The notes: generated from the letters alone by a model not told the origin. A DNA stretch of 64,000 nucleotides from a virus (IMGVR_UViG_3300005805_000044), one strand, 5' to 3'. Counted from the stretch's first letter, positions 12,799 to 60,737 are shown. Numbers and translations are program-made.

Positions 12799-12826
12799 GT
12801 CTTTACTATAATAAATAGTAAAAACC

Positions 12827-14005
12827 TCATCTTCCTACCTCAGCAAAGTAAAGTTTTTTAGCTTCATCGTAAGGCATTCCAATCATTTTGTTATAATACA
12901 ACACATCTGGCTTAAGACGATGCTCAGATTTGAGTGTCTTGTATCGTGATATAGCCTTTTGTTTCCACCAATCTATGACATAGTTTTCAGTATAAATTGG
13001 ATTTGGTTTCAACACATCATCAAGAATTTCTCCTTTTAAGAATTCTCTACTATTATGATATGGACAAGCATAATACGTGCCTCTTTCAAAACCATGAACA
13101 TAATCAGACGACTTGATATTACATTGTGAAAATATCATACTGAGAACTCTATTTTTAGCGCCAGTAACAGGTCCTGATACCCCTTCACGTTGCGTCATCG
13201 CCTTTTGATATTTTTCTGCTTTATTCTCTTTAATCCAATCATGCCAGATCTTGTAAATACTATCATCTGGTTTAATAGTCATTTTACCAGCGCTAGTTCC
13301 ACACTTATGCCACCATTTAAGACTATTATACATGCTATAACTACCATACAAACTGGTAGTTGTAATACCTGCTAAGGTTTGACCATACAATTGTTTCCAC
13401 AAATTTCTAATAGTTTCACCGGTGACCAATCCCGCTACCAACTTACCCCCCAAGAAATTATATCCAAATGGTTGGGTAGACATAATACAGCTACCAATCG
13501 CACTATTGTTTAGTTTCTTGGCTTTAAGTTTTGCATCTGGAGTCCAACCAATATAATTATCTCTATCAGTAATAGTAATAACATCACTAGACATACTAAT
13601 TACTCCAAGATATCTAGGATTATCTACATTGCCGTCACTAATTAATAGTTTGATAAATCTACCAGGTGTTTGGTCATATGCCATAGTATGGACAAATGTC
13701 CGCAACATTACCCAATCATTATCTAATATAGAGTCATTTACATACACCACTGTGGGTTTGAGATTTTCAATTTCTTTGATTGTCTTTTTCTCATCGTTTA
13801 GATCTTCTGGAAGCCAAATCTTATTTTTAGCAATTGCAGCTCTGTCTCTATAATTCTGTAGTTCCTGCACCTCAATCCACTTTTTGTAGAAAGTTTGTTC
13901 TTCTACTGACATTGCTTTGAGGTGGTTAAGATTATCAATAAGTTTTTTCTTATTTCCCTCGTAGTCAAACTCGGCAATATCAAAGTATTCAGACAATGTG
14001 TTCAT
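12827..14005 (-). CDS. DUF4338 / Druantia DruA-like protein
   Basis: PGR, YLGVI, RDNYIGW, QPFGYNFLGGKL, ITTTSLYG..SMYN, GTSAG motifs. Confidence 0.7.
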   Translation of the reverse strand: MNTLSEYFDIAEFDYEGNKKKLIDNLNHLKAMSVEEQTFYKKWIEVQELQNYRDRAAIAKNKIWLPEDLNDEKKTIKEIENLKPTVVYVNDSILDNDWVMLRTFVHTMAYDQTPGRFIKLLISDGNVDNPRYLGVISMSSDVITITDRDNYIGWTPDAKLKAKKLNNSAIGSCIMSTQPFGYNFLGGKLVAGLVTGETIRNLWKQLYGQTLAGITTTSLYGSYSMYNSLKWWHKCGTSAGKMTIKPDDSIYKIWHDWIKENKAEKYQKAMTQREGVSGPVTGAKNRVLSMIFSQCNIKSSDYVHGFERGTYYACPYHNSREFLKGEILDDVLKPNPIYTENYVIDWWKQKAISRYKTLKSEHRLKPDVLYYNKMIGMPYDEAKKLYFAEVGR

Positions 14006-14025
14006 ATTTATAACTAGAGTATACC

Positions 14026-14265
14026 ATGAAGTTCAAAAAAATCAATCCAAAAGAATCTACTTTTTTTGTATTTGAAACTAGTCAAAGATCATTTAGTGTA
14101 TTTGACAGTCAATTAGATGATCCAATTTATTATGGAAGTTGGAATATGTGTGAGGGTATTGTTAAAAATATTAAAAAACACATGAAAAATGCTTCCATAT
14201 ATTATTATTCAAAAGAAAAAAGCGGAGAGTTAAAACTCAGTCCGCTTTGGTCTCACAATATTTGA
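14026..14265 (+). CDS. hypothetical protein
   Basis: ORF fills the gap; TATTTAT at 14005-14011 on its own strand. Confidence 0.55.
   Translation: MKFKKINPKESTFFVFETSQRSFSVFDSQLDDPIYYGSWNMCEGIVKNIKKHMKNASIYYYSKEKSGELKLSPLWSHNI
14216..14248 (-). terminator. intrinsic terminator after 14273..14638
   Basis: AAAGCGGA/TCCGCTTT stem with inner GAGT/ACTC stem, then T-run on the - strand. Confidence 0.65.
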
Positions 14266-14272
14266 ATTACGT

Positions 14273-14638
14273 TTAAGCAGTAATCTTACTTGAAGTTACC
14301 ATAGTAGATTCAGTATTGACCGTTTCAACCTTAGTAGGAATAACATTCAAAACGTTAACAGTCAATCCATCCTTCAATACAACACCCTTACTCTTGGCAT
14401 CAGCAATATGTTCTTGATTAACTGGATTACATGCGAGAACAACACGGGGACGACCCTTGCCATTGTGAAGATATCCAATCTCTGATACCATATTATCAGT
14501 AATTGCCTTCTTGATACGAACCCTCAGTGTAATATTGACAAACTCGGGGTTCTTCTCATTAAGTTCCTCAATTGTAAAAATATTGGCAGGCCAATTAACA
14601 GTGAGGTTTGTCTTGTTCTTTCTATCAGTCTTTTTCAT
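14273..14638 (-). CDS. putative winged-helix DNA-binding protein
   Basis: FTIEEL...ITLRVRIKKAI...GKGRPRVV (wing with GRP); own promoter and GAAAGGA SD. Confidence 0.55.
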   Translation of the reverse strand: MKKTDRKNKTNLTVNWPANIFTIEELNEKNPEFVNITLRVRIKKAITDNMVSEIGYLHNGKGRPRVVLACNPVNQEHIADAKSKGVVLKDGLTVNVLNVIPTKVETVNTESTMVTSSKITA

Positions 14639-14690
14639 TTTTTATCCTTTCTTGTTTTATGTTTGTTTAGGTAACTATACCCATGTTTAA

Positions 14691-14718
14691 ATTATATCAC
14701 ACGCTTCTTATATGTCAA
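14691..14718 (-). promoter_or_regulatory. sigma70-type promoter
   Basis: TTGACA-16 nt-TATAAT with extended TG. Confidence 0.75.
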
Positions 14719-16792: not shown

Positions 16793-16816
16793 ATTATTAT
16801 CTAATTAATTTTTGTA

Positions 16817-17794
16817 TTAAAACGGAGGTTGATTGGCTTCCTTGACAGGATCGTTGAACAAGTTGGTATTGGTCTCAGTCTTAACATACTTCTGAACAAG
16901 CTGTTTCATGTAGGTTCGTTCACTATCAACGCCACCATCCTCACTGAAATTAGGATAAATGGTAGTCTCGGCAATTTCAAGCAAATTAAATCCATCAACA
17001 ATAAGTTCAGCAATTTCCACCGTAGAACGAGTAGGAATAAAATTAGTGATCTTACTATCCTCCAACTTGACCTGCTTGCGAGTATGATCAGCAATATCAC
17101 AAACAGCATTCAATAAATCCAAATGATTTGTATCAGTAATGTTAAACCGTTCCTTCAACAGATTGACTTCGCTATTCTTGTCCAAAGGACTCATTTCAAT
17201 CTTGACAGGAAAACGTGAAAGAAGAGCACGATCCATAACACGGGTAGCGGTGTATTCATTACCAATATTAGCGGTAGCAATGAACGTAACACCGTCGGCA
17301 ACCTTTACCACTTCGTTGTCTTCCTTTTCATCAAGTCGAAGATAACGTTGAAGATCGTCCAAAACGGTCATAAGAATATTGACACCATCGTGATGACTAC
17401 GAGAAATTTCGTCAAGAAGAATGATGGCGTTGGGAGTGCGAATAGCCTTGACAAAACTAGATTCCTTGAAGAAGGTTCCAGTAGACTTGTCAAAATGCGT
17501 ATTTCCAATAAGAGATGCACGGGCATCTTGAGTAGCACCAAGATTAAAGTAAAAGAACTTGTTTTCCTTACCAATAACCTTTGCCACAGTCTGAGCAGCA
17601 AGAGTCTTGCCACAACCAGTGGGTCCAAGCAAAAGGATGTTCTTGCCACGAAGAGCGGAACGAACCATATACTTCCACTTAACATTATCCATGATCAAGC
17701 TTGATGGACGAAGTTCGTTGCACTTTTCAAGATATCCTTTCATATCAAAATTCTTGGACACTGTAAGATTCATTTGATTTTCTTTCTTTTTCAT
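16817..17794 (-). CDS. MoxR/CbbQ-type AAA+ ATPase
   Basis: GPTGCGKT, ILLDEISR, IATAN, MDRALLSRF. Confidence 0.9.
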   Translation of the reverse strand: MKKKENQMNLTVSKNFDMKGYLEKCNELRPSSLIMDNVKWKYMVRSALRGKNILLLGPTGCGKTLAAQTVAKVIGKENKFFYFNLGATQDARASLIGNTHFDKSTGTFFKESSFVKAIRTPNAIILLDEISRSHHDGVNILMTVLDDLQRYLRLDEKEDNEVVKVADGVTFIATANIGNEYTATRVMDRALLSRFPVKIEMSPLDKNSEVNLLKERFNITDTNHLDLLNAVCDIADHTRKQVKLEDSKITNFIPTRSTVEIAELIVDGFNLLEIAETTIYPNFSEDGGVDSERTYMKQLVQKYVKTETNTNLFNDPVKEANQPPF

Positions 17795-17813
17795 ATTTGA
17801 AGTTGACTATATC

Positions 17814-17841
17814 ATCTTAACACACACTTTTTGTAAGTCAA
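17814..17841 (-). promoter_or_regulatory. sigma70-type early promoter of the AAA+/VWA operon
   Basis: TTGACT-16 nt-TAAGAT with extended TG; same TGTTAAGAT as the 11403 promoter. Confidence 0.7.
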
Positions 17842-17850
17842 CATCAAAAT

Positions 17851-17879
17851 AAAAAAACCGCTGAATTTCTTCAGCGGTT
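17851..17879 (-). terminator. intrinsic terminator
   Basis: AACCGCTGAA/TTCAGCGGTT perfect stem plus T-run on the - strand. Confidence 0.85.
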
Positions 17880-18665: not shown

Positions 18666-18676
18666 AACAATTTATA

Positions 18677-19318
18677 TTACTTTTTACGTGCCTTACCACC
18701 TTTAGTATATTTAACTACTAATTTTGATAATCCTTTTGGTAATTTTGGTGGTTCGTATGATGGTTTTTTTGGTTTGTGATCTGATTGTTTTTCAAACTTA
18801 TCTGCTGGACGCATAGGTTCGGTTGGATCATCCTTTGCGTCATTCATTGGTTTGGCTTTTATACTCTTAACTACTTTATTATCTTTTTCTGGATCAACTA
18901 AATTTTGTTCTTCTGCTGCTTTGTCTGCTTTCTTACCACCTTCTTTATCTTTACTATTATCTACTGTTCTTTCGTAAGCATTGTCTACATAATTTAATTC
19001 TTTTGATCCAAGCCATTCTTTTACATATTTCTTAACATCTTCAAATGGAACAAACATTACCTTTTGACGTTCAACACCATCTTTGAAATACTGTAAATCA
19101 AATATATCATGAACTATAGGACGAATACTGATATGATGTGGTTCACATTGACATACATTGTAGTTGCCAGCATCATCAAAAGTAATAGGCTTTTTGATTT
19201 CTTTTGACAAAGATTCCATCATATCGGCCCATGTTCTGTCTACAGCGGTGGTTTTTTCTTCAATAACTTCTCTTACTATCTTTTTGACCGCTTTTTTGAG
19301 TTGTTCTCTATAATTCAT
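18677..19318 (-). CDS. hypothetical late protein, probable head-internal protein
   Basis: TATTTAT upstream; N-terminal LKKAVKKIVREVIEE helix; charged disordered C-terminus. Confidence 0.6.
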   Translation of the reverse strand: MNYREQLKKAVKKIVREVIEEKTTAVDRTWADMMESLSKEIKKPITFDDAGNYNVCQCEPHHISIRPIVHDIFDLQYFKDGVERQKVMFVPFEDVKKYVKEWLGSKELNYVDNAYERTVDNSKDKEGGKKADKAAEEQNLVDPEKDNKVVKSIKAKPMNDAKDDPTEPMRPADKFEKQSDHKPKKPSYEPPKLPKGLSKLVVKYTKGGKARKK

Positions 19319-19374
19319 ACTATAATATGTTCATCATATAAATATGTTTGATATTAAAAAAATGATAATATTAT

Positions 19375-20450: not shown

Positions 20451-22748
20451 TTATAGGGCACATGCTCCACTAGCACAACCACTTTCTTGTTCAATAGTTG
20501 GTTCTTGTTTTGTTACTTCAGACTTCTTTTCTTCCATTGCGGTTTGTTTATCACCATCATCAGTATTGGCATAATACAAATTCTTAATACCATACTTGTA
20601 AGCCAACAACATATCTTTAATTACTTCTTGAACTGGCACCTTGTTACTAGGATATCTTGAAGGAACATAATATGTGTTTGTGGAAATGCTCATATCAGTA
20701 AACTTCTGAATAGCAGCAGCAATCTTTAAATAACCATCATTGTCAGGCATATCAAAAGCAAAGGTATAGTTTTCTTTAAACTTATCAATACCAGGCACAA
20801 CTACAGGCAGGATGTTACTCTTACTGCCTTTAAAACTGATAGCACTACGAGGAGGTTCAATACCATTAGTAGAACTCTGAATAACACTACTTGATTCGAC
20901 AGGCATACATGCAGTCAATGTTGAATGACGCATTCCATGTTTCTTGATTTCTTCACGCAGACCTTCCCAATCCATGTGTAGTTTCTCTGTAATAAATTCA
21001 TCAACATCTTTCTTATAAGTGTCAATAGGGAGAATGCCCAAATTAAACTTGGTCTTGTCAAACTTCTCACACTTACCAAGTTCTTTTGCCATTTGAACAC
21101 TAGCTTCAATCAAGTAATAACTTTGTTTTTCCATCATCTTGGCAACAACATTAGGTGCTTTCTTATCCCAATACTTATATCCTTCACGGGCAAGATAAGC
21201 AGCCAAGTTACTTACACCAACGCCAAGACTACGACGTTTCTTAGCAAAGTTTTCAGCAGCAGGCACAAAATAATTCTGATGTTCAATTAAAGCGTCCAAC
21301 ATTCTAACAATAACATCACAAACACTCTTCATTTCATCATCGTCCTTGATTTCAAGCCAATTTACAGCGGCCAAAATACAAACACCAATTTCACCATTTG
21401 GATCATTGACATCAGTAATAGGAATCAATGGATGATTAACTTCCAAACATAGATTACTAGTATCAACTTGTTCAGTCCAACTACCGTGATCATTTGCGTG
21501 ATCAACAAACATAGTATAAATACGACCAGTCTCAAGACGTTCTTTTGCCAACAAACCAATTAGTTCACGAGCAGGAATCTTCTTCTTGAATTTAATATTT
21601 TTATTAGCCTCAGCCTTTTCATACAACTCTTTGAAGTTTGAAAAACCAAAGCTATTCCACAAACTAGGACATTCATGATAACTAAACAATGTAACATCCT
21701 TGTTCTGTAGGAAACGTTCAAAGATCAACTTATCAAGACCAATACAATAATCAAGCTTGCGAACACGATTGTCATCAGTTCCTGCATTGTTCTTCAACAC
21801 CATGATATCCATAATGTCATAATGAAACCAAGCAAAATTGACGGTTGCACTACCACCACGAATACCATTCTGATGACAACACTTTACAGTGGACTCAAAA
21901 GCCTTAGCAAAAGGAATTGGACCGGTATGAATCACTTCGCCGTTACGAATTGGTGCATTGGTAGCACGCAAACGACTCAAATTAAGTCCAATACCATAGC
22001 GAGATGCAGTGGCAAATCCAACTGCACTATTGTTACTAAAAATACTCTTCAACGTATCATCAACAGTAAACAAACTACAAGAAGCATAACTCTTCATTGG
22101 AGTTCTAACACCAGCCATAATTGGGGTAGGAAGATTAATTTTATGTTTACTGAAGTAGTTGTAAGCTTTCTTAACATAATCAAGTCTGTGATCTTTGTAG
22201 TCCTTGAAAAATGTCATGGCAATCAACATATAAGCAAACTGTGGAGTCTCATAAATCTTCTTGGTAGATCTATTTTGAACCAAGTATTTATCACACAATT
22301 GTTTAATTCCAGCGTAAGTGAAATTAAAATCACGATCATGTTTCAGATATTCATCCAACTTATCAAACTCTTGCTTTGAATACCAATTTAAGATTTCATC
22401 ATCATAAACCATGTGGCCAATGTTAGCCTTGACAAGATCATACAATTTAGGAGGATTCTTTCCACCCCAAACTTCTTTTCTCAAATGATAATTCAACAAT
22501 CGTGAAGCAACATATTGATAGTTAGGTTTTTCCTCACTAATCAAATTGGCAGCTGCTTCAATCAACATGGCATGAATATCTTTTGAAGACATTCCATCAA
22601 AGAAACTGAGATGTGCATTCATCGCAACTTCTTCAAAACCAACACCTTTTATATCTTCGGTAGACCATTGCAAAACTTTATTGATTTTGTCTGCATTGAA
22701 TTTTTCTACCTTTCCACTACGCTTCTTAATAAAAATCTCTTTATTCAT
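20451..22748 (-). CDS. nrdA: class Ia ribonucleotide reductase alpha subunit with ATP cone
   Basis: IKKRSG ATP cone, PTPIMAG, SNLCLE, MPVESSS, NGIEP, LYY, C-terminal CASGAC. Confidence 0.97.
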   Translation of the reverse strand: MNKEIFIKKRSGKVEKFNADKINKVLQWSTEDIKGVGFEEVAMNAHLSFFDGMSSKDIHAMLIEAAANLISEEKPNYQYVASRLLNYHLRKEVWGGKNPPKLYDLVKANIGHMVYDDEILNWYSKQEFDKLDEYLKHDRDFNFTYAGIKQLCDKYLVQNRSTKKIYETPQFAYMLIAMTFFKDYKDHRLDYVKKAYNYFSKHKINLPTPIMAGVRTPMKSYASCSLFTVDDTLKSIFSNNSAVGFATASRYGIGLNLSRLRATNAPIRNGEVIHTGPIPFAKAFESTVKCCHQNGIRGGSATVNFAWFHYDIMDIMVLKNNAGTDDNRVRKLDYCIGLDKLIFERFLQNKDVTLFSYHECPSLWNSFGFSNFKELYEKAEANKNIKFKKKIPARELIGLLAKERLETGRIYTMFVDHANDHGSWTEQVDTSNLCLEVNHPLIPITDVNDPNGEIGVCILAAVNWLEIKDDDEMKSVCDVIVRMLDALIEHQNYFVPAAENFAKKRRSLGVGVSNLAAYLAREGYKYWDKKAPNVVAKMMEKQSYYLIEASVQMAKELGKCEKFDKTKFNLGILPIDTYKKDVDEFITEKLHMDWEGLREEIKKHGMRHSTLTACMPVESSSVIQSSTNGIEPPRSAISFKGSKSNILPVVVPGIDKFKENYTFAFDMPDNDGYLKIAAAIQKFTDMSISTNTYYVPSRYPSNKVPVQEVIKDMLLAYKYGIKNLYYANTDDGDKQTAMEEKKSEVTKQEPTIEQESGCASGACAL

Positions 22749-22862
22749 AAATTTGTTACAATGGTGATAAATAACTATGACTTAAAAATGCCTTCGTGAA
22801 CGATCTGACAAATAATTTTTTAAACTTTTTTTGACAGGTTTTTCACGATGACATACTATGAA

Positions 22863-26593: not shown

Positions 26594-27499
26594 TTAGGAG
26601 TTGAACAAATCGTCAAACGCCTTTTCGACATCATTCTTTGGAGCAGCTGCCTTCTTGGCTGTTGGAGAAACAACAGTCTTAGTTGGGGCAACAGGCTTTG
26701 ATGGTGCCGGAGCTGATGTCGGAGCTGGTGCCGCTTTCTTAACTTCGGCAACAATCTTTGCATCAAAAGGTGCATCATCCGTCACAGCGGTTTCCTCTTC
26801 GGAAACAACTGGAGTTTCAACTTCACCTTCCGTCTCTGGATTCAACCACTTATCCATCACATCCTTGAGTTCATCGTAAGACAACTCTGGGAATAGATCA
26901 AGAATATTGGTCTGATTCTTAAGAGACTCAATCAACTGAGCATTCTTAGGGTCAACTGCTGGTGTGACACTTGGCTTCACACGAACAGTGGTTTCAGGAA
27001 AACTCTTTCCAGATTCTTCAGCTGTCTTGAATTCAACAGTAATATCACGACCATTGGCGAGGTCAGTAATATCACCATATTCTGCGTCCAAACAAACTGA
27101 GACGAGTTCTTGATAAACAGTCTTACCGAAACCCCAGAACTTCACACCTTCATTCTCTTCACCACGAACGATGACTGGAGCGAATGTGCGCATCTTGGGT
27201 TCCATCTTACGACCCATCTGCCAATCTTCCTTGGAACCAGTCTTCTTCAAACGATTAGCAAATTCCACGATAGGATCTGGACGACCAAAACTATCTGGTG
27301 AAAGATAAGTCTTGCCGTTGATATTATAATGGAACTTGAGTTCGATGAAAGGGTTCTCAGGATTGAACTTGTAGGGAACAATACGAACCACTTGTTTTCC
27401 AGGCTTGGGTTTCCAAAGAAGATCGTTTTTCTTGTTATTGGAACCTTGGTTTGAAAGGGAGTTCAAACGACTCTTTAGCTGCGATATATTTAACGCCAT
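26594..27499 (-). CDS. gp32: single-stranded DNA-binding protein (T4 gp32-like)
   Basis: WKP..G..VRIVP, FWGFGKTVY, DITD...GRD, acidic tail ending FDDLFNS. Confidence 0.88.
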   Translation of the reverse strand: MALNISQLKSRLNSLSNQGSNNKKNDLLWKPKPGKQVVRIVPYKFNPENPFIELKFHYNINGKTYLSPDSFGRPDPIVEFANRLKKTGSKEDWQMGRKMEPKMRTFAPVIVRGEENEGVKFWGFGKTVYQELVSVCLDAEYGDITDLANGRDITVEFKTAEESGKSFPETTVRVKPSVTPAVDPKNAQLIESLKNQTNILDLFPELSYDELKDVMDKWLNPETEGEVETPVVSEEETAVTDDAPFDAKIVAEVKKAAPAPTSAPAPSKPVAPTKTVVSPTAKKAAAPKNDVEKAFDDLFNS

Positions 27500-27541
27500 A
27501 ATTAGTTTAATTAGTTAATTAGTTTAATTGGTTAATTAGTT
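27500..27541 (-). repeat. 5 tandem AATTAGTT(T) units directly 5' of the gp32 start; putative translational operator
   Basis: aattagttt/aattagtt/aattagttt/aattggtt/aattagtt on the + strand. Confidence 0.8.
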
Positions 27542-27592
27542 AAATGTCTTAATTCACTTAAATTAAGATTCTTAACGAATCACCATGACGAC

Positions 27593-27621
27593 ACTCTACA
27601 CCATGTATAGAAGACCGTCAA
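27593..27621 (-). promoter_or_regulatory. sigma70-type promoter of gp32
   Basis: TTGACG-17 nt-TAGAGT; a TATTTAT element lies just upstream (27625-27631). Confidence 0.6.
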
Positions 27622-27635
27622 GGTATAAATACATA

Positions 27636-28031
27636 TCACCACGAAAGTATAGAAAACAGCTTTAGTTGGACAATTTTAACGCCCGGATCAGATATAAGAA
27701 TAATACAATTTTTATATAAATCCCAGTTAAGTTGAAATGTTTTATCAAACACACCTTCATTTTCATCTACAATCAAACGATTCATAGCATTAAGTGTATA
27801 AAGCGTATTGGTTTGTTTTTTCCTATGAACACTAATTGTATTGGGGTATTTAACTTTAGAATTAGGATCTTTGACTACATTAAAAGTCAAATATATTTCT
27901 CTTAAATTTTTCTCATTAGTAAACACAAATATTTTGTTGTCAATTAGATCGTAGGTATTTTTAATTTCTTCTACGACTGACAAATACTTTGTGCTATCAG
28001 AAAATGTGCAAAGTAATTGTTTTTGTATCAT
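27636..28031 (-). CDS. hypothetical protein
   Basis: ATGA overlap with upstream gene; QLLCTF, HRKKQTNTLYTLNAMN. Confidence 0.7.
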   Translation of the reverse strand: MIQKQLLCTFSDSTKYLSVVEEIKNTYDLIDNKIFVFTNEKNLREIYLTFNVVKDPNSKVKYPNTISVHRKKQTNTLYTLNAMNRLIVDENEGVFDKTFQLNWDLYKNCIILISDPGVKIVQLKLFSILSW

Positions 28032-29902: not shown

Positions 29903-29917
29903 CAATTATAAATATGT

Positions 29918-37906: not shown

Positions 37907-37927
37907 TGTATATAAATAGTATTATAC

Positions 37928-40561: not shown

Positions 40562-40590
40562 ATTCTGTTATTATATTAATAAATATCTAG

Positions 40591-42438: not shown

Positions 42439-42453
42439 ATCAATAAATATATG

Positions 42454-42491
42454 AAAAGAAAAAAACCCCTCGCTTTTTCAGCGAAGGGTTT
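42454..42491 (-). terminator. intrinsic terminator after tail tube gene
   Basis: AAACCCTTCGC/GCGAGGGGTTT stem plus long T-run on the - strand. Confidence 0.8.
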
Positions 42492-43005: not shown

Positions 43006-43066
43006 AATATTATTCCTTTATGTCCTAGATATAAATATGATTAAGATTAAATATTTATGATTTTTT

Positions 43067-44227: not shown

Positions 44228-44241
44228 TTATAATAAATATT

Positions 44242-44615: not shown

Positions 44616-44640
44616 ATACTTTATATATTCAGAATGTCAA
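44613..44640 (-). promoter_or_regulatory. sigma70-type promoter overlapping the first repeat
   Basis: TTGACA-16 nt-TATAAG. Confidence 0.55.
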
Positions 44641-44806
44641 CAAATTTTAAACTTATACCAACAGAAATATCCAATTTTATTTTATCAGATTGATATATTT
44701 TGCTGAATAAATCTAAAAAGTCCTCTTCAATTAAAGGCTTTTCTGACGGCTCAATAAGCGAGTCGTAGTATACAGAATCATCATACGGCTCAAATCTAAC
44801 TTTCAC
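44621..44806 (-). CDS. hypothetical protein
   Basis: GTG start 5 nt after TATTTAT. Confidence 0.45.
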   Translation of the reverse strand: MKVRFEPYDDSVYYDSLIEPSEKPLIEEDFLDLFSKIYQSDKIKLDISVGISLKFVDILNI

Positions 44807-44824
44807 ATAATATAAATATGTGAA

Positions 44825-46693: not shown

Positions 46694-46736
46694 ACTTTAG
46701 TCTATTATAAATATGGACAATGATCAATATATTCAA

Positions 46737-48752: not shown

Positions 48753-49988
48753 TTATCCTATGTAGATATGTAATGGAACCTTACCAAGCATTTTTATCAT
48801 CGCATCAGATTCTTTGTCTTTATTTTCAAGTTGATTTACTCTCAAACTTTTATCAAGCATATCTCTTAATTTCTCTAAAAGAGTATCCTTCTCTTCTTTA
48901 GCTTCGGATCTTAATTCGGCACCGTCTAATGTTACTTCACCGCCTGGAATTGGAACTGTGCTATATTTTTGAAGAATACGGCCCAACGTTTCTTTACAAA
49001 GAGCTAAAAAATATTTTTTGATCCACTGTTTACCGGCTTGGTTTATCTTACAATATTGACATAACTGATACGGAGCATCACTTGGGTCACTAATATACTC
49101 ATATCGTGACCCACTAAAAAAGTTAGTAATGTTCTTATCACTCTCAATATAGTAGTCAATATAAATTCTAAAATCATGAGTTGGAATTGGAAATATTCTC
49201 AACATATTATCGCCCGTGATTTGAAAACCATACGCACTTTTACGCACCATATCATTAAATTCAATAGCTTGAACACGCTCTAAATCTTCAAATATCGGTG
49301 TCATCAAAAACTGAGTTGCCGGACTATACGCACTAAATCCCATTTCTTGTAGAACGTTACTGTAACTCATACCAGTCATACTAAACGGATCATATACACG
49401 AGAAATTGCAGGTGGTCTGAAGTGAAATACTCTTCGAACTTCAATACGTGATCCAGTCAAGTGTTCGATATCACTGCCAATGATTTGATTCAAATCAAAC
49501 ACTTGATGACTGTCTTGAGGTCCACCAAAACTTGCAGACCCCGTTGCTAAAAATGAGGCACGTTTAAGTTCTGTTTCGCCACCAACCAACGCTTCACTTC
49601 CATATTGTTTACTTAATTGAACAACAAACGGTAGGCCAGTTCCTTTTACACTCAATCCCAATAAATTAGGATATTGATCTTGTGGTAAGCCTTGAACATT
49701 GATCAAATTATTAACAATATTGAACTCATTTACAACACGATTATACTCCAAAACAGATTCTTCAAAACACGCATAAAAGTTGGCATCAATCATTTCAATA
49801 TCAACGATTGGATATCCTAATCTTTTAGCGGCCCACATCGCACTGCTGCTACAATCATTTTCAAACGTGGTCTCATCAGAATCACAACTCGTCTCGTCCA
49901 GATAGTAACCAAATGGAACGGATGCAGAATTAACTGTTGATCCACTGCCAGGCCACCTTACTCTATCTTGGTCTAAATTAGCACTCAT
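48753..49988 (-). CDS. gp13: neck / head-tail adaptor (gp13-like)
   Basis: KRLGYPIVDIE, WIKKY.LAL.KE.LG....KY..VPIPGGEVTLDG. Confidence 0.85.
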   Translation of the reverse strand: MSANLDQDRVRWPGSGSTVNSASVPFGYYLDETSCDSDETTFENDCSSSAMWAAKRLGYPIVDIEMIDANFYACFEESVLEYNRVVNEFNIVNNLINVQGLPQDQYPNLLGLSVKGTGLPFVVQLSKQYGSEALVGGETELKRASFLATGSASFGGPQDSHQVFDLNQIIGSDIEHLTGSRIEVRRVFHFRPPAISRVYDPFSMTGMSYSNVLQEMGFSAYSPATQFLMTPIFEDLERVQAIEFNDMVRKSAYGFQITGDNMLRIFPIPTHDFRIYIDYYIESDKNITNFFSGSRYEYISDPSDAPYQLCQYCKINQAGKQWIKKYFLALCKETLGRILQKYSTVPIPGGEVTLDGAELRSEAKEEKDTLLEKLRDMLDKSLRVNQLENKDKESDAMIKMLGKVPLHIYIG

Positions 49989-50033
49989 TAAATATAAATA
50001 TCGGAATATTCGATATTAGTGCTAAAATCTAAT

Positions 50034-53730: not shown

Positions 53731-54333
53731 TTACCAGTATTTTCCTTTACCCTTGTTTCCTAAACTACGAATACGATGACTACGACAACTCCAATAACCA
53801 GCTGTAGTTCTATCTTTCTTTTGACTACATCTGTGACGTGCAGCAAAACTCTTACGACGAGCCTTGTTACCAGCTCTACTTCTCATATTAGGATCACCAA
53901 AAGTTACCTTCTTTACATTGCCGTTTTTTGATTTGACATACACAGCATACTTCTTTGGACCGCCTGGAGTTCTGAATGGTCTATTGAGATGAACAGTGCG
54001 ACCTCTATGTTTCAACTCCATGATCAAATCCTCAACAACCTCAATAGGCGCATCAAGATACACTTCACGACCTTCAAACATCTCTTTTTTACCCAAATCA
54101 CTCTCGACTAATTCGGCATCTGAATCACACAGTTCGATCTTGTTTTCAAAATATAATTTACGAACTTCTTCCAATAATTCAAAATATGATTCACTGTAGG
54201 TTCTGAAGATGGTCTCTGATAAAGGTAATTGTTTAGTTAAATGATACTTAAGATTGTCACTGACAGACACATCTTCAGTCAATGACATCCCACACAATTC
54301 ATCACTTTCAATAAGATCGTTTAATTTAATCAT
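53731..54333 (-). CDS. hypothetical protein: acidic N-half, very basic C-domain (DUF6321/DUF5754-like)
   Basis: MIKLNDLIE leader; KKYAVYV...VTFGD...RRKSFAARHRC...AGYWSC. Confidence 0.65.
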   Translation of the reverse strand: MIKLNDLIESDELCGMSLTEDVSVSDNLKYHLTKQLPLSETIFRTYSESYFELLEEVRKLYFENKIELCDSDAELVESDLGKKEMFEGREVYLDAPIEVVEDLIMELKHRGRTVHLNRPFRTPGGPKKYAVYVKSKNGNVKKVTFGDPNMRSRAGNKARRKSFAARHRCSQKKDRTTAGYWSCRSHRIRSLGNKGKGKYW

Positions 54334-54344
54334 AGATATAAATA

Positions 54345-55274
54345 TTATTTACCATACTTGTTCGTAGCCTTTAATTCACTAATTAGAATTTTTTCTGGGT
54401 CATTCAAATTCTTCTCCAATTCAATAAATAATTCATCTAAAGTATACTTTTTATCGGTTCTTTGTTGAATCTGTCGTAAACGGTCAATTGTATCAACAAC
54501 ACTATCCAATGTATCTTTGTATCGGTTGAATACAGGCAGTTCAATGTGTTTACTGAATTCCATCGACTTTGGAGCAATACCTTTAAGTATATTAATAAAG
54601 AATGCGATTACATGTTCTACTAACGAGAATATCGCACCAGCAATTGGGTTTGTAGCAGCTAAGAATCGTAACACCATGAAACATATCAAGAATATCAATA
54701 TGCCAGTCACACCTATAGTCACGAATCTTTTTAGTCCATACATTACACCACCAAGACCCATCCAACTATTCACTTCATCAACAGTAACTTGCAATCTATC
54801 AGCCTTTTTCGCCACTTGAGAAGCCTGTTCTTCCAAACCTTTAATCTGAGACTCATATACATCTTCTATTTCTTTTTGTCGAGTTTGAAGATCCAATATT
54901 TCAGTATCTTTTTCTTTTAACAGTTTTACACCTTTATCTTTTTCTTTATCAATTTCACTGTTTAAAAGATCAGTTATTTGTTTTATTTTGTTCAATTCGT
55001 CAATATTTGGATTACCAGCAATACTCAATATTCTAGAATTATAATCCAAAGCAGTCTTGACTTGAACTGGAGGATTGGTCACAGACTTCAATGAATACTC
55101 TGTGCCAGCAGCCAAAGTAGAAACCTCTTGTAACTTTTCTTCATCGTTTTTTGCCTTTTCTACGCGGGTTACTGCAAGTGCATCTTTGGTCTTTTGAACC
55201 TTATCTGCATTTGGTGTTTTGCAACCGCCGAACAACAACAAAGAAGCCAAAAATAGCATTAATGTTTTTTGCAT
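54345..55274 (-). CDS. lipoprotein with coiled coil and downstream TM segment (spanin-like)
   Basis: lipobox LFGG-C18, about 150-aa helical region, TM FVTIGVTGILIFLICFMVL. Confidence 0.6.
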   Translation of the reverse strand: MQKTLMLFLASLLLFGGCKTPNADKVQKTKDALAVTRVEKAKNDEEKLQEVSTLAAGTEYSLKSVTNPPVQVKTALDYNSRILSIAGNPNIDELNKIKQITDLLNSEIDKEKDKGVKLLKEKDTEILDLQTRQKEIEDVYESQIKGLEEQASQVAKKADRLQVTVDEVNSWMGLGGVMYGLKRFVTIGVTGILIFLICFMVLRFLAATNPIAGAIFSLVEHVIAFFINILKGIAPKSMEFSKHIELPVFNRYKDTLDSVVDTIDRLRQIQQRTDKKYTLDELFIELEKNLNDPEKILISELKATNKYGK

Positions 55275-55306
55275 ATACCTATAAATATCTATCTTAGTAT
55301 AAAAAC

Positions 55307-55335
55307 TTGTTTATTTATCTGGGTTGGTATATACT
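55307..55335 (+). promoter_or_regulatory. mom promoter region (sigma70-like plus embedded TATTTAT)
   Basis: TTGTTT-17 nt-TATACT, ATG 6 nt later; TATTTAT at 55312-55318. Confidence 0.5.
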
Positions 55336-55341
55336 GATAAT

Positions 55342-56115
55342 ATGTCTAATTATTGTGATACTTCATTAGTTTATCTGCAGCCGATCAACAAGTCGGTAGC
55401 ACGTAATCTTATTGAAAAAAATCACTATACACACAAGTGGACCAGTTGTTCAGTGGCATATGGTGTTTATTATAAAGACTATATAGAAAGTAGTTTTTTT
55501 GGTGGATTTGACAGTAAATTGATAGGAGTATTGGTCTATGGTAATGCTGTAGGACGTAATTCAAGCACCAGTATTAGTCCACTATTAACCAATGATAATG
55601 TATTTGAATTGACACGTTTATGGATACAAGATGGTTTTGGCAAGAACATAGAGAGTTTTTGTATAGCTGAAAGTTTTAGGTATTTAAACCGAGATTATCC
55701 AAAAATTAAGTGTATTTTGAGTTATGCTGACAGCGAAGTTGGTCATGCTGGAACCATCTATCAAGCCACTGGATTTTTATATCAGGGTGACAATTATGTT
55801 GATATTGCATTGATGCCCAACTACAGTGTTAGTTTGGTTGGGCCACCCAACTATGATTGGATACACAGTAGAAACGTCTATGGTAGATGGAAAACACACA
55901 ATGTAGACAAGTTAAAAGAACGTATTGGTAAAACCTTCTGGCGTAAACGTGAAAGTGGCAAACATCGTTATATCAAGTTCATTAGTAACAAGATTGACAA
56001 CAAAAAGTTGACCAAATCATTAATACATAAATTACTTCCATATCCAAAAACTACATCATTTACAGAAGAAATAATGGAAGTTACCGTCAAAAATACCAAT
56101 CAATTTTTCCAATAA
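55342..56115 (+). CDS. mom: Mom-family adenine-modification enzyme (GNAT-like)
   Basis: HY, ELTRLW, ES, ILSYAD..GH.GTIYQATGF.Y.G, KHRY. Confidence 0.85.
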   Translation: MSNYCDTSLVYLQPINKSVARNLIEKNHYTHKWTSCSVAYGVYYKDYIESSFFGGFDSKLIGVLVYGNAVGRNSSTSISPLLTNDNVFELTRLWIQDGFGKNIESFCIAESFRYLNRDYPKIKCILSYADSEVGHAGTIYQATGFLYQGDNYVDIALMPNYSVSLVGPPNYDWIHSRNVYGRWKTHNVDKLKERIGKTFWRKRESGKHRYIKFISNKIDNKKLTKSLIHKLLPYPKTTSFTEEIMEVTVKNTNQFFQ

Positions 56116-56150
56116 AAAACCCACCAGCCTTTCGACTGATGGGTTTATTG
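56112..56150. terminator. probable bidirectional terminator between mom and the major capsid gene
   Basis: AAACCCA(C)CAG/CTG(A)TGGGTTT stem flanked by A- and T-rich tracts between convergent genes. Confidence 0.75.
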
Positions 56151-56172
56151 TTTTAATTTAGACTAATCCAAA

Positions 56173-57903
56173 TTATACGGTGTCTAGATCAGCGATCAAG
56201 ACCTTACCATAGAACTCAGGACGCACTACCTTCTTAGCGTAGCGAGTCATCACACCACGGCGTGGAGTGAAGTTCACTGGATCATAGACCAATGGAGTTT
56301 GGATGAGTGGGATGTATGGAGCATACACAGCACCAGTCTCCAAGAAGTTGCTACCACGGAAACCAACGAGGATAGCATTATCGGTCATGTATGGGTTCTT
56401 GTAAACTTGGAAGCGACTTGCGAAGCTACCAACGCGGCTTACACCCATTGCGAACTTAGCTTGGTCACCGTCAGTGTTCACAACATATCCTGGGATTGAT
56501 TCCAAGATGGTTGCTACGTCTGGGGAACATACCAAGAAGTTAGCACCACCACGTAGAGTCAATTGGTGAATCTTGTTAGAGACCTTTTGGATCTTGTTAC
56601 CAAGAGTTTGGAACCAAGTGCTCTTTACGTAAGCAGTTCTGTTTGGAGAAGCATTTACGTTACGAGTGAATGATGCAACATCAGTAGTGTTGTTGATGGT
56701 CTTAGTGAATTCAGTTCCGATTTGGGCGGACCAAGCTTCAGTGGTTTGACCAGTTACAGACTCGTTCAACATGTCTAGGATTTCGAGATCGATTTCCATA
56801 GAAACATATTCACTCAATAGAGCAGTAAGTTCTGCTTCTGCGTCAATAGAATGATATGCGTTCAAGTCTTGAGCCAATTCTGGAGTCCAGACAGCCTTCA
56901 ACTTACGGGTCTTAGCAACGATTGGTTCGCTCTTAAGTTCCAAGTTGACTTCTGGGATCTTGATGTCAGTGCCGATAGATTGGGTATATACGTTGTTAGC
57001 AACACCTGAACCTTCACCGGCGGTCTTACCATCTTCGAAGTCACCACGTAGGTTGTCCGAAGGTTGAACAGTGTAGTTCAAACGAGCAGTGGTCGATGGA
57101 GCAGCTGCGGCAGAAGATTGACTTACAAACAAGTTAATTTGATAGTATGGGTTTGCCAAGCTACCAGTGTTAACTGCGGTTGCGTAAGTGTTCAATACTG
57201 TGTAAGCTACACCAGAACTGTTTTGAACTTGGAATGAACGAACAGCGTTCAAATCAGCGTTCCAGATGTTACCAGAACCAGGATTTGCTTCGGTGTTGTC
57301 GTCAAGGTTGAATGTCACCTTGTAAACGCCTGGAACGTTACCAGAACCGTTTACAGAAGCACTGAATGTTGAATCGAATTGAAGATCGTTCCAACTTGCA
57401 GTAGCAACCAATACAGTAGCATTAGAGCTAGAAACGGTGCGCTCAGAATAAGCGTAACGTCCTTGGCCATAAAGACCATTTACTGGTGCATCAGTTGATC
57501 CAAGCTTCTTTTGGTTACCACCGAACAAGCTTTCGCCAGCAGTATGACCCAATTGAGTGCCAGAACCATACTTGAAGTCTAAGTAGAAGATAAGACCGCT
57601 TGGGAGATTCATTGGTTGAACCGATACGAATTCCTTAGCAGCGATCTCAGCAAATACACGACGAACCAATGGTAGAGCAACGCCTGCCCATTGTTCACTG
57701 TTTGCGCTGGTTCCAGTTGTTGAAGCTTCGTCCAACAATTGTTTTGCTTGATTTTCCAAGAGGATTGACATGTGTGCCTTTTCAACACCGGTGGTGTTTT
57801 CTAGAAGACCTGTCTTTTCCCACTTGTTTTGAAGACCACGGGTTTCAGCCATTAGCTTTGCCTGTGGGTTCATATTATTTGTTAGTAGACTCTTTACGTC
57901 CAT
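56173..57903 (-). CDS. gp23: major capsid protein (T4 gp23-like)
   Basis: LLENQ, PLVRR, VQPM..PSGLIF, KTRKLKA.WTPELAQDL.AYH.IDAEAEL, YAPYIPL, FTPRRG.MTRYA. Confidence 0.97.
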   Translation of the reverse strand: MDVKSLLTNNMNPQAKLMAETRGLQNKWEKTGLLENTTGVEKAHMSILLENQAKQLLDEASTTGTSANSEQWAGVALPLVRRVFAEIAAKEFVSVQPMNLPSGLIFYLDFKYGSGTQLGHTAGESLFGGNQKKLGSTDAPVNGLYGQGRYAYSERTVSSSNATVLVATASWNDLQFDSTFSASVNGSGNVPGVYKVTFNLDDNTEANPGSGNIWNADLNAVRSFQVQNSSGVAYTVLNTYATAVNTGSLANPYYQINLFVSQSSAAAAPSTTARLNYTVQPSDNLRGDFEDGKTAGEGSGVANNVYTQSIGTDIKIPEVNLELKSEPIVAKTRKLKAVWTPELAQDLNAYHSIDAEAELTALLSEYVSMEIDLEILDMLNESVTGQTTEAWSAQIGTEFTKTINNTTDVASFTRNVNASPNRTAYVKSTWFQTLGNKIQKVSNKIHQLTLRGGANFLVCSPDVATILESIPGYVVNTDGDQAKFAMGVSRVGSFASRFQVYKNPYMTDNAILVGFRGSNFLETGAVYAPYIPLIQTPLVYDPVNFTPRRGVMTRYAKKVVRPEFYGKVLIADLDTV

Positions 57904-57948
57904 AATATTATTTCCTATCTTTTGGTTTGTTAATTACTCGCAAACAAA

Positions 57949-59031
57949 TTACTTCTTGATTCCTGCGAGTTTTTGGAATCTTGAAGCCATTACATCAGCT
58001 TGAGGTTCTACAATCGTAGACTCAGGCTTTGTGCTGGATACTGGTTTGCTTGCCAAACCTTCGGTGATAGTTGTGACAGTCGCATTTGACTTTTTCTTGG
58101 CGACTGATCCACCGGCATTAAATGATTCGGCCAAAACGGTGTATGCCAATTTGATTTCACGCAATGTCTTGGTGAGATCAAATGTGTTGATGACCTTCAA
58201 CTTTTGGTCTTCGGTCAAATTCTTACCCTTGAATAGCTTATTGGTATAAAGCAATTTAGCATTCAAAAGATTGGTTTCTTCAAGAACACCCTTTAAATAC
58301 TTAACGGTGTTTTGATGTTCCTTCAATTGATTCTTCAATGCTTCATTTTCTTCATTAATAGCTACCAAAGCTTCTGCCATTTCTTCAGCAGTTACTTCTT
58401 CCTCTTCCATTGGAGAAGGAACTTGTCCAGCAACTGGTGCTACTGGAGCTGGTGCTGCTGCGGGTGCTGCAGCTGGAGCAGCTGCGGCTGGTGCTGGTGC
58501 TGCTGCTGTTGGATCAACAGCAGCTGGAGCTGGAGCCGGAACTTGTCCTTCTTCTTCCAATTCAGCAAGAAGTTCATCAAGATCAACAGTTTCTGCTGAA
58601 TCGTCGTCTGCAACTTCTTCTTCTTCAGCAACAACTTCTTTTTGTTCTTCTTTGTCGCCTTCATGTTCCAACTCAGCAAGAATTTCATCCAACTCTTCGC
58701 TGGTCAACTCTTCACCCTCTTCAAGTTTTGCATCGAATTCTTGAGATCCAGGTGGAACAGTGTTTTTCTTGGCTGCGGTTGATGGTTGAACAACGTGTTG
58801 ACTGCTTACAGTGTTACCGTCGTCTTTACCAATACCTGAAGAAGAAAGTTTTTCTTCAATCTTACCTTCTTCAGTTTTTTCTGTGTCTGCTGCTTCTTCC
58901 TTGAGTTTTTCTGCGAACATTTCTTTCATGCTCTTTGCGAAGTTTTCCTCAAGAAAAGTTTTTGCATTAGCAATTGCAGTTTCACGAACTGCTTTTGCGT
59001 CTGCGATGCTTTCTTTTAATAGATCGCTCAT
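57949..59031 (-). CDS. gp22: prohead core scaffolding protein (gp22-like)
   Basis: directly upstream of the capsid gene; acidic Glu-rich coiled coil, PA-rich linker, C-terminal RFQKLAGI; AGGAAAGG SD. Confidence 0.8.
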   Translation of the reverse strand: MSDLLKESIADAKAVRETAIANAKTFLEENFAKSMKEMFAEKLKEEAADTEKTEEGKIEEKLSSSGIGKDDGNTVSSQHVVQPSTAAKKNTVPPGSQEFDAKLEEGEELTSEELDEILAELEHEGDKEEQKEVVAEEEEVADDDSAETVDLDELLAELEEEGQVPAPAPAAVDPTAAAPAPAAAAPAAAPAAAPAPVAPVAGQVPSPMEEEEVTAEEMAEALVAINEENEALKNQLKEHQNTVKYLKGVLEETNLLNAKLLYTNKLFKGKNLTEDQKLKVINTFDLTKTLREIKLAYTVLAESFNAGGSVAKKKSNATVTTITEGLASKPVSSTKPESTIVEPQADVMASRFQKLAGIKK

Positions 59032-59132
59032 ATTAATTTTACCTTTCCTGTTTGTTTTTTTGGTGAAGTTATTGGAGAACTCCAAAGAAGATTGAATTTG
59101 TAGTGGCATCAAAGACATTGACGCATTTGATA

Positions 59133-59179
59133 ATAAATATAATATAAAATATACAAATTCATTTTTTTTTAATATTTAT
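59133..59179. promoter_or_regulatory. divergent pair of TATTTAT late elements
   Basis: ATAAATA at 59133-59139 (for - strand scaffold) and TATTTAT at 59173-59179 (for + strand gene). Confidence 0.7.
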
Positions 59180-59185
59180 TGATAT

Positions 59186-59794
59186 ATGCCAGCACAAAGC
59201 GAAAAACAAGCAAAATATTTTAGATTGGTGAGAGCTGTTCAAAAAGGAGAAGTTCCTGCGAGTAAAGTATCAAAACAATTAAGAAAAACTGCAAAGTCAA
59301 TTTCTCCTAAAGCTGCTAAAGATTTTACAAAGGTAAAAGAAATTGTAAATAAATACATCAATGAAGCAGAATATACGTCCGCAAAAATGAAAGAAGTTCC
59401 AGATAAAACTTTGGATGATGTATTGAGAGAAAACTCAGGAGTAAAGTTTGATAATGATGAATTATTAACTTTTCAAAACAAACAAAGTGGATTTGGTGGA
59501 TTTGGTAAAGTAAATTTTGTTCACAAGAAAAGCACAAACGAAATAAGTGCAACTGTAACAAGTAATGAATCTAACAAAATTTACGTATTTAAAAAATTAG
59601 TCAACAACCAAAACCCAGGCCTTTATAACTATGGGTGTTTCATAGAAATTTCGCTTGCAAAAGACAGTGAAGACGAAAAAGAAAATAAACCAAAAGTAGT
59701 ATACTTACTTAGTAGTATTTTTAATAATAAAGGCGAAGAAAAGACAAAGATATTAGCAGATTTCATTGATAGGATTAATTCATATGGACTATAA
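59186..59794 (+). CDS. hypothetical protein with DUF3008-like N-terminus
   Basis: MPAQSEKQ...AVQKGE...AKDF, then KVKEIVNKYINE. Confidence 0.65.
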   Translation: MPAQSEKQAKYFRLVRAVQKGEVPASKVSKQLRKTAKSISPKAAKDFTKVKEIVNKYINEAEYTSAKMKEVPDKTLDDVLRENSGVKFDNDELLTFQNKQSGFGGFGKVNFVHKKSTNEISATVTSNESNKIYVFKKLVNNQNPGLYNYGCFIEISLAKDSEDEKENKPKVVYLLSSIFNNKGEEKTKILADFIDRINSYGL

Positions 59795-60149
59795 AACACT
59801 ATACAGTCAAGCAAAATTAAACAGTTTCTTAAATAAAGCAAAAGATCAAGAAATTGAGCCTGACAAATTTAAACTAATAGAAATTGATCATCCAAATGGT
59901 TGGAACTTCAATGAAATAGATACATTGGGTGATATGGGATTTAAAATTGACAACGATACCGATATGGTATGTGAAGTTGAAATTCCCACACTAGAAATGA
60001 TGGAAGAAAAAGTTCCAGTTAGAGTATATAAAAACGAAAACGGTTATGTCCTTGAGACTAACCGTCAATACGTTTTTGAGAGTTTTGAAAAGATGATTGA
60101 ATTTATCGATTCAATACCATCTGATCCAAAAATGAGACATGTTAAATAA
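59784..60149 (+). CDS. hypothetical protein
   Basis: overlaps upstream gene end; acidic. Confidence 0.6.
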   Translation: MDYKTLYSQAKLNSFLNKAKDQEIEPDKFKLIEIDHPNGWNFNEIDTLGDMGFKIDNDTDMVCEVEIPTLEMMEEKVPVRVYKNENGYVLETNRQYVFESFEKMIEFIDSIPSDPKMRHVK

Positions 60150-60151
60150 CC

Positions 60152-60697
60152 TTATTTATTTGATTGATAAGATGGTTGTTGATGTGGTTGTGTAATTGGT
60201 TGAGCCCCAGGCAACTCTTTATTTTCAGCAGCTGTTCCCCAAGCAGCTGGATCTGGTGGACTTGCAGTGCTTACTGAACCTTGATGATTTTGAGTTTGAA
60301 ATGCTTGAGGAGCTTCTGTTACTGGATCAGCAATTTCAAAATAACGTTCCAACTTCAAACCAATTTCTTCATAAAGCATTTCAAGTTGATGTTCAACACC
60401 TTTAATCTTGCTTGCTTCTTCATGCAATTGACGTGCCATTTTCTTTACATCTTTCATGTCACGTTCAATCATCTTTGCTTCCATCCACTCGTCACACTCT
60501 TTTAGTGCATAACGTTCTGCCAAATTTACTGCTTCCATGATCTTCGCAGCAGTGGCATAAATACACTCAGCTTTTAGATCTTTACGATATTCATTATATG
60601 CTTTGACTGTTTCACGGAGCTTGACCTTTTCCTCTTTGGTCAACGGAGCATATGCTGTTTCAGTAGAGTTTTCTACGAGATGTTTGAGCTTAATCAT
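60152..60697 (-). CDS. hypothetical late head-associated protein
   Basis: TATTTAT 7 nt upstream; MIKLKHLVE leader; helical; LERYFEI. Confidence 0.65.
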   Translation of the reverse strand: MIKLKHLVENSTETAYAPLTKEEKVKLRETVKAYNEYRKDLKAECIYATAAKIMEAVNLAERYALKECDEWMEAKMIERDMKDVKKMARQLHEEASKIKGVEHQLEMLYEEIGLKLERYFEIADPVTEAPQAFQTQNHQGSVSTASPPDPAAWGTAAENKELPGAQPITQPHQQPSYQSNK

Positions 60698-60737
60698 ATA
60701 TACAATAAATATGTTGAAAAATGAAATTCGACTACAA

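Follow-up and report, generated by a model that had tools for sequence, protein, structure and literature searches.

A strand-specific TATTTAT box in a phage with a gp23-type capsid: a probable single-element promoter and its candidate gp55-like sigma factor

A short string that recurs just upstream of many genes may be a promoter, a ribosome signal or a processing site. The viral stretch IMGVR_UViG_3300005805_000044 (64,000 nt; "the window" hereafter means this whole stretch) raises the question of which of these the heptamer TATTTAT is, and of what reads it. We found the sense-strand TATTTAT, referred to here as the box, in 20 of the 67 upstream regions of 35 nt, where it was the commonest 7-mer, whereas its reverse complement was present in one of the 67. 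Across 5000 composition-preserving shuffles of the same regions, the count had a mean of 1.6 and a maximum of 8. An earlier note on this DNA had described a strand-specific, gene-oriented element and had named enrichment over a shuffled background as the check; both the orientation and the enrichment were borne out. Counted over the whole window, 43 copies were present against 31.2 expected, and because this excess is weak, the signal is positional and strand-specific rather than compositional. We consider the box to be probably a phage promoter made of a single -10-like element, with the host core polymerase carrying a phage sigma factor, a distant homologue of T4 gp55, as its most likely reader.

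A scan of IMG/VR with the capsid protein of the window returned 80 loci with 64-97% identity, and the boxes of this clade were pooled into a set of 194 non-redundant sites. The box consensus was (A)TATTTAT(A/T), the only signal beyond the heptamer being an A directly before it and an A or T directly after it, and each one-letter variant of the heptamer stood before at most three genes. No -35 partner was found at the 194 sites, where the information content stayed at or below 0.15 bit throughout the 49 nt upstream (-49 to -1). TATAAAT, present in 6 upstream regions while its complement was present in 10, was not enriched and gave no spacing peak. The box was never found before a gene that overlaps or abuts its upstream neighbour, and most genes in the window had no Shine-Dalgarno (SD) site. 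Other candidate signals were set aside. The variant CTAGTTAT, found before two genes, was at chance level, and sigma-70-type consensus sites, considered as an explanation for the box-less genes, were not enriched over shuffles in the 24-64 kb region (76 sites where shuffles averaged 80.8, and 86 where they averaged 77.3). A pyrimidine before the ATG was dropped as a start-site signature, since a T before the ATG is found genome-wide and also in box-less genes.

The surroundings of two sites in particular point to a promoter. The tail tube gene (42514-43005, minus strand) is followed by an intrinsic terminator at 42463..42491 (-), with a 12-bp stem, six GC pairs and a T-run; 13 nt past the stem the box at 42443..42449 (-) begins, and 4 nt further on lies the ATG of the next gene, 41650-42438. 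The genes 57949-59118 and 59186-59794 are divergent, so the 67-nt spacer between them (59119-59185) must hold two promoters, and its only conserved blocks were two outward-facing boxes, at 59133..59139 (-) and 59173..59179 (+). The distance between box and ATG in the clade had a hard floor: none of the gaps measured 1-3 nt, 25 measured 4 nt, 113 measured 5 nt, 56 measured 6 nt, 20 measured 7 nt and 13 measured 8 nt, with none at 9 nt and then a broad tail to 60 nt (redundant counts). The non-redundant set gave a curve of the same shape, and control 7-mers of the same composition gave no peak. In the non-redundant set, 106 of the 194 boxes ended 4-8 nt before an ATG, and 93% of the starts in that class were ATG. 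A floor of 4 nt together with a second class of long leaders is what would be expected from a fixed transcription start a few bases past the box, and since gaps of 1-3 nt are absent and 5 nt is the mode, that start would lie at most 5 nt after the 7-mer. In two cultured relatives the box lies further upstream. It was found 11-26 nt before the terminase, portal, sheath, tube and tape-measure genes of Flavobacterium phage vB_FspM_immuto (immuto) and 20-40 nt upstream of genes of Microcystis phage Mel-JY01, where a GGAG site stands between box and ATG; the box is thus not tied to the ribosome site. Taken together, the terminator, the divergent spacer, the spacing, the leaders of the relatives and the orthologous conservation favour a promoter over a ribosome signal, and so uphold the choice of the earlier note, which had named a translation enhancer as the rival.

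Comparison with the relatives revealed that the box is conserved at orthologous sites. In most of the 56 related loci longer than 8 kb, TATTTAT or an overlapping neighbour ranked first or close to first among upstream 7-mers, and the box was kept in more than 50 uncultured relatives as well as in immuto and Mel-JY01, with diverging flanks. Among distinct orthologous upstream regions, it was present in 25 of 31 for the adaptor gene 48753, in 19 of 21 for gene 53731, in all 11 for gene 54345, in all 13 for the scaffold-like gene and in 19 of 20 for gene 59186; several of the regions upstream of the 53731 orthologue showed the same order of terminator, box and ATG that was seen behind the tube gene. 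The capsid gene, which begins 45 nt after the scaffold gene, had a box in only one of 48 such regions. In the complete immuto genome (NC_055915), 20 of the 29 box-headed starts lay in the virion half (78-160 kb). The regulon thus extends past the virion proteins, since immuto boxes were also found before a lectin-domain gene (10515), GroES (40248) and a glycosyltransferase block (48955).

What might read the box? One ORF of immuto, gp118 (KNV73_gp118), showed a weak match to the T4 gp55 family phrog_234 (E 0.008), and as a single sequence this protein had no sigma match in the PDB and no Pfam family. Its family is huge and unannotated, with about 8000 word-sharing relatives and 1435 representative clusters at E ≤0.001. 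Homologues were found in four of the longer clade contigs, G003, G004, G005 and G009; their capsid proteins share 85, 74, 68 and 82% identity, respectively, with that of the window. The G003 sigma gene is found 5' of the capsid gene at a distance of about 49 kb; the equivalent position would be beyond the end of the window, where we would expect the phage to carry its own sigma gene. With a profile of 61 sigma-family sequences, the best match in the whole PDB was T4 gp55 (E 0.021), collinear over gp55 residues 5-160. An hhalign comparison of the family with gp55 gave an E-value of 0.0012 and a probability of 19.5%, and the best match of the profile in the six-frame T4 genome was in gene 55 (E 5e-4). 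In the profile alignment (7d7c_F), gp55 Y97 pairs with the tyrosine of a nearly invariant AFSYF motif of the sigma family; in T4, this Y97 stacks on the flipped -12 adenine (PMC7892883).

The AlphaFold model of the sigma, with a predicted local distance difference test score (pLDDT) of 91.5, was compared with known structures, and all 50 top VIA-align matches were sigma factors. Region 2 of the model superposed on sigmaE bound to -10 DNA (4lup_A) with a Z-score of 9.9 and a root mean square deviation (rmsd) of 2.5 Å over 91 of 91 residues. Both helical domains of the model aligned with full-length sigmaE (1or7_A) with a Z-score of 10.4 over 171 residues, the second of them with region 4 of full-length extracytoplasmic function (ECF) sigmas. 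Model and profile alignment together agree with a sigma region-2 fold that has the conserved aromatic residue for the flipped -10 base. VIA-align Z-scores below about 13 are common among helical proteins, and the structural argument therefore rests on the uniform list of matches and the full-domain coverage. Foldseek gave the model no E-value of 0.1 or less, a result of the differing orientation of the two domains. Outside the clade, Mel-JY01 has a sigma-family member (E 3e-76) and the box TATTTAT, while Rhodothermus phage RM378 has a diverged member (E 9e-16) and the box TATTTAA, which preceded 10 of the 30 annotated starts in the 24 kb around its capsid gene against 0.72 expected. As far as we have seen, this RM378 box is unpublished. 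The RM378 family member, at 17104-17814 of the same locus (L094), is distinct from the annotated sigma factor Rm378p144. The sigma open reading frames (ORFs) of the clade appear from their sequences to carry an N-terminal extension of 80-150 residues, lysine-rich and of low complexity, that is absent from the immuto protein; it was located at 1036-1485 in L092, at 1177-1626 in L091 and in the N-terminal part of 1474-2397 (-) in L093.

Several points weigh against the proposed promoter and its proposed reader. No sigma candidate lies within the 64-kb window, so that the advice of the earlier note to look for a gp55-like factor elsewhere in the genome led to a family in relatives and not to a gene of this DNA. 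None was found either in G001, the nearest record, or in the contigs G006-G008 (97% capsid identity), which are fragments too short for the purpose. The homology to gp55 is weak at the level of sequence (E 0.02 to 5e-4), and only co-occurrence links the sigma family to the box. The modelled sigma carries a sigma-4-like second domain that gp55 lacks, yet the box has no -35 element; as a guess by analogy, this domain may hold the beta flap, as gp33 does in T4. A gp45-type clamp (phrog_223) had no match in immuto or in four long clade contigs. The tight peak at 4-8 nt would also fit an element that acts on translation at a fixed distance from the ATG. In the register of T4, where the 8-mer of the late box spans -13 to -6, transcription of the modal 5-nt class would begin on the T of the ATG, so the box here must sit 1-2 nt closer to the start site than in T4, or the start must be flexible. 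Aligned as a -12 to -7 hexamer, TATTTA would have the A of the ATG as its seventh base downstream, at the spacing usual in bacteria. Transcription from the box, its reading by the sigma, late timing and leaderless translation are all steps that we infer, and "late" may be too narrow a word, because the box also heads nrdA and the gene for a single-stranded DNA-binding protein (SSB). As to the distinct late specificity that had been claimed, the box does seem to have a specificity of its own, while its lateness is suggested by gene content only.

A different kind of signal could act in the mRNA. An AU-rich element that recruits the ribosome to SD-less starts, for example through protein S1, would suit the tight placement of more than half of the sites at 4-8 nt from the ATG, the lack of SD sites in most genes here and the AU-rich box itself. 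We nevertheless consider it quite unlikely, as AU-rich enhancers are not sequence-strict, whereas this 7-mer tolerates no substitution, and for nearly half of the sites the distance to the ATG is 10-125 nt. In Mel-JY01, the box stands 20-40 nt upstream of genes that have their own GGAG. A translation signal also leaves unexplained why genes that overlap or abut their upstream gene are never boxed, why the box follows a terminator directly and occupies both arms of the divergent spacer, where promoters are required, and why it co-occurs with a dedicated sigma family. The same positions count against an RNA-processing site, at which an endoribonuclease would cut late transcripts at UAUUUAU and free near-leaderless cistrons. 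The box resembles many RNase E-type sites in being AU-rich and single-stranded, and many boxes, for example those at 54338, 37912 and 29908, lie in very short co-directional spacers without a terminator, but cleavage fails at the boxes in divergent spacers (59133/59173 and 14005) and after the strong terminator (42443), because no upstream transcript arrives on that strand. Since, in addition, no dedicated nuclease was found next to the box and the co-occurrence with the sigma family fits transcription better, processing appears highly improbable.

If the box is a promoter, it could still be read by the host holoenzyme or by a host alternative sigma rather than by a phage sigma. TATTTA resembles a generic AT-rich -10 hexamer with an A at the second position, and the co-occurrence that links box and phage sigma leaves room for such a reader. 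However, the same box occurs in phages reported on different host phyla (Flavobacterium for immuto, Microcystis for Mel-JY01), it has no -35 or -33 partner, and it shifts to TATTTAA in RM378 alongside the diverged phage sigma. The Bacteroidota -7 consensus is TAnnTTTG, from which the box differs. Relatives also place a separate sigma-70-like signal before the gene of a Mom-like protein, and we regard a host reader as unlikely. With a phage sigma as the reader, transcription would start about 5-7 nt past the box. About half of the units, those with 4-8 nt between box and ATG, would then yield mRNAs that are leaderless or have a leader of 1-3 nt. The remaining units, which include the tube, scaffold plus capsid, SSB and nrdA units, would have leaders of 12-125 nt, some of them with an AGGA-type ribosome site; such sites were found in the leaders of the tube and scaffold genes, whose products are abundant. 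The near-leaderless mRNAs of the earlier note thus keep their basis in so far as half of the cases leave room for a leader of 0-3 nt, and it is this geometry alone that suggests them.

The T4 late promoters, TATAAATA, are read by gp55 with the co-activator gp33 and the gp45 sliding clamp, and gp55 flips the nontemplate bases -12, -9 and -8 into pockets (PMC7892883). The box had earlier been presented as the reverse complement of the T4 core, which is arithmetically true and mechanistically misleading. TATAAATA is nearly palindromic, and in the forward direction TATTTATA departs from it at positions 4 and 5 alone (AA to TT), so that "T4 box with the middle AA changed to TT" and "reverse complement of T4" are two names for one string. 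The forward reading is the more economical, and nothing points to an inverted one. Both promoters are single 8-bp -10-like elements without a -35 element that stand before many individual virion genes, also inside co-directional clusters, and they share six of eight letters in the same direction (TAT..ATA). Additionally, the clade encodes a putative gp55 homologue with a region-2 tyrosine aligned to gp55 Y97, and the phage has a gp23-like capsid, a prohead protease, a UvsX-like recombinase and a gp32-like SSB. In contrast, the middle letters are TT here and AA in T4, so the T4 consensus is not matched: the box retains the A's that correspond to T4 -12 and -8 and differs at -10 and -9, the latter being one of the three flipped bases. 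T4 late mRNAs begin with an SD-bearing leader, but about half of the units here would be without one, and the sigma here would have a C-terminal sigma-4-like domain and, in this clade, the lysine-rich N-terminal extension.

Other systems share part of this architecture. The model has the two-helical-domain fold of ECF (group 4) sigmas, with region 2 as in -10-bound sigmaE, but it has no sequence-detectable Pfam sigma domain, and ECF promoters have a strong -35 element (AAC type) that is missing here. RM378 has the same sigma family and a sense-strand box that shares TATTTA and lies 6-31 nt before starts, although its last letter is A instead of T and its leaders are longer. In poxvirus late promoters, the TAAATG initiator overlaps the start codon and 5' poly(A) heads arise by slippage. 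By analogy, a late promoter core that abuts or overlaps the ATG and leaves essentially no encoded leader recalls the box described here; the polymerase is unrelated, the setting is eukaryotic and the poly(A) heads are added by slippage.

A broader proposal, which we put forward tentatively and with somewhat more doubt than belief, is that a sigma family of gp55 stock (more than 1400 clusters at 50% identity, with its own sigma-4-like domain) reads TATTTAT(A/T) and sets +1 on the A of the AUG, that the late regulons of abundant aquatic phages are in this way leaderless, and that the box drifts with the sigma along the lineage as TATAAATA, TATTTAA and TATTTAT. If true, this would be a dedicated coupling of transcription and translation for hosts that make little use of SD pairing. 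Confirmation of the box as a promoter of this sigma would give a one-line rule for transcription units and probable late genes in abundant, mostly uncultured aquatic phages with T4-type capsids. It would also provide the cognate promoter of a sigma family that has thousands of members and no annotation. The three boxes would form a natural series for a change of gp55-type specificity at -9 (flipped) and -10, and the near-leaderless units would be a rare case of a whole phage regulon expressed as leaderless mRNA. Both immuto and Mel-JY01 are cultured and carry box and sigma together, so the proposal can be tested at the bench. We found no paper that describes the box or a gp55-like factor in Flavobacterium phages, in a literature search of incomplete coverage.

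All 17 minus-strand and two plus-strand sites listed in the earlier note carry the exact 7-mer upstream of a gene on the same strand; the list missed one, at 9433..9439 (+), which lies 16 nt before the ATG of an ORF for 93 residues of unknown function (9456-9737). The spacing of 4-7 nt described for ten cases was confirmed for the genes 28028, 35291, 41650, 43067, 44621, 48753, 53731, 54345, 59186 and 60152. Besides the box behind the tube terminator, this group has a gap of 4 nt at 54338..54344 (-), before the ATG of 53731-54333. The gap is 5 nt at 29908..29914 (-), before ATG 29902 of a 625-residue gene ending at 28028; at 37912..37918 (-), before the ATG of 35291-37906 (871 residues, tail/baseplate block); at 44233..44239 (-), before the ATG of 43067-44227 (386 residues); at 49994..50000 (-), before the ATG of the adaptor-like gene 48753-49988; and at 44812..44818 (-), before the GTG of a doubtful 61-residue ORF (44621-44806), where the gene served is uncertain. 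It is 6 nt at 55281..55287 (-), before the ATG of 54345-55274, and for the plus-strand box of the 67-nt spacer, before the ATG of 59186-59794, and 7 nt at 60705..60711 (-), before the ATG of 60152-60697 (181 residues, head module).

At the remaining sites the distance is longer. The box at 12811..12817 (-) lies 12 nt before the ATG of 12394-12798 (134 residues, unknown), the one at 14005..14011 (+) precedes the ATG of 14026-14265 (79 residues) by 14 nt and is located in a divergent spacer of 20 nt, and the one at 19338..19344 (-) lies 19 nt before the ATG of 18677-19318 (213 residues, unknown). The box at 22767..22773 (-) precedes by 18 nt the ATG of nrdA (20451-22748), the gene of the large ribonucleotide reductase subunit and thus non-structural, and the box at 27625..27631 (-) precedes by 125 nt, with a structured leader, the ATG of the SSB gene (26594-27499). 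Those at 40579..40585 (-) and 46707..46713 (-) stand 17 nt before the ATG of 37928-40561 (877 residues) and 13 nt before the ATG of 45143-46693 (516 residues), respectively. For the tube gene, the box at 43031..43037 (-) lies 25 nt before the ATG, and the leader has AAGGAA. The minus-strand box of the 67-nt spacer serves the scaffold-like gene (57949-59118) and the major capsid gene; it stands 14 nt before the first in-frame ATG (59118) and 101 nt before the in-frame ATG 59031, which is preceded by AGGAAAGG as an SD site, so the 25 nt and "about 100" nt given before for tube and scaffold agree with our values. The scaffold leader is probably 101 nt long, and the capsid gene is probably co-transcribed. 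As evident from these sites, the idea that the box heads structural units applies to most of them, which serve virion genes, and does not extend to 22767 (nrdA), 27625 (SSB) or 44812, which heads only the doubtful ORF.

The window has a G+C content of 33-37%. Plus-strand genes fill 1-9.7 kb and include an exonuclease, glycosyltransferases and a dUTPase, and beyond 9.7 kb nearly all genes are on the minus strand. The 9.7-27.5 kb region is a replication and nucleotide block with both ribonucleotide reductase subunits, a DnaB-like helicase, a UvsX-like recombinase, the gp32-like SSB and a gp62-like clamp-loader subunit (phrog_225, E 6e-13), and the 27.6-64 kb region holds virion genes, among them those of the baseplate wedge and hub, tail tube, adaptor and prohead protease. 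The gp23-type major capsid protein gene (56173-57903, -), which has no box of its own, encodes a protein about 51% identical to those of immuto and Mel-JY01 and 37% identical to that of RM378, with far lower identity to T4-like phages. The nearest record, G001, is a fragment of 37.7 kb with a completeness rating of 16%, and this points to a genome of more than 200 kb for the phage of the window. A megablast search of phage records with 20 kb of the window gave no match, and Rfam and tRNA scans of the window were empty.

A second promoter class appears beside the Mom-like DNA-modification gene (phrog_1384) on the plus strand, whose start is probably ATG 55342 rather than the listed TTG. The gene is preceded by TTGTTT-17 nt-TATACT (55307-55344, +), with 6 nt from hexamer to ATG, and the relatives L016, L020, L034, L035, L025, L026, L009 and L010 have a full TTGACA-N16/17-TATAAT there; two promoter classes therefore coexist. 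A TATTTAT at 55312 (+) lies within this spacer and is probably there by chance. TTGACA-N16/17-TATAAT is not of the Bacteroidota promoter type, which raises a question about the type of host.

The SSB leader (27497-27631, -), from just after the box, contains two hairpins with a minimum free energy of -29 kcal/mol (z -3.5); from these to the AUG run unstructured AAUUAA(A/C)CU repeats, 32 nt in all. By analogy, this recalls the autoregulatory operator of T4 gene 32, in which a structured element at the 5' end is combined with an AU-rich repeat tract free of structure. Next to it, a likely gene for 131 residues at 27636-28031 (-), which the ORF table gives only in a longer TTG-started form, has an ATG that overlaps the stop of the upstream 625-residue gene (ATGA). 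The 392-residue protein encoded at 12827-14005 (-) matches the Pfam family DruA (Druantia defence protein A, PF14236) with 68 bits against a cut-off of 27, and would be a defence-system component carried by a phage. Between the baseplate hub gene and the box-headed 877-residue gene lies an ORF-free gap of 237 nt (40562-40798), which holds a hairpin at 40748-40771 in addition to the box at 40579. The two strongest terminator hairpins of the window follow its two most abundant virion genes, the capsid gene, with a 13-bp stem at 56117-56146 between convergent genes, and the tube gene, with the 12-bp stem at 42463-42491.

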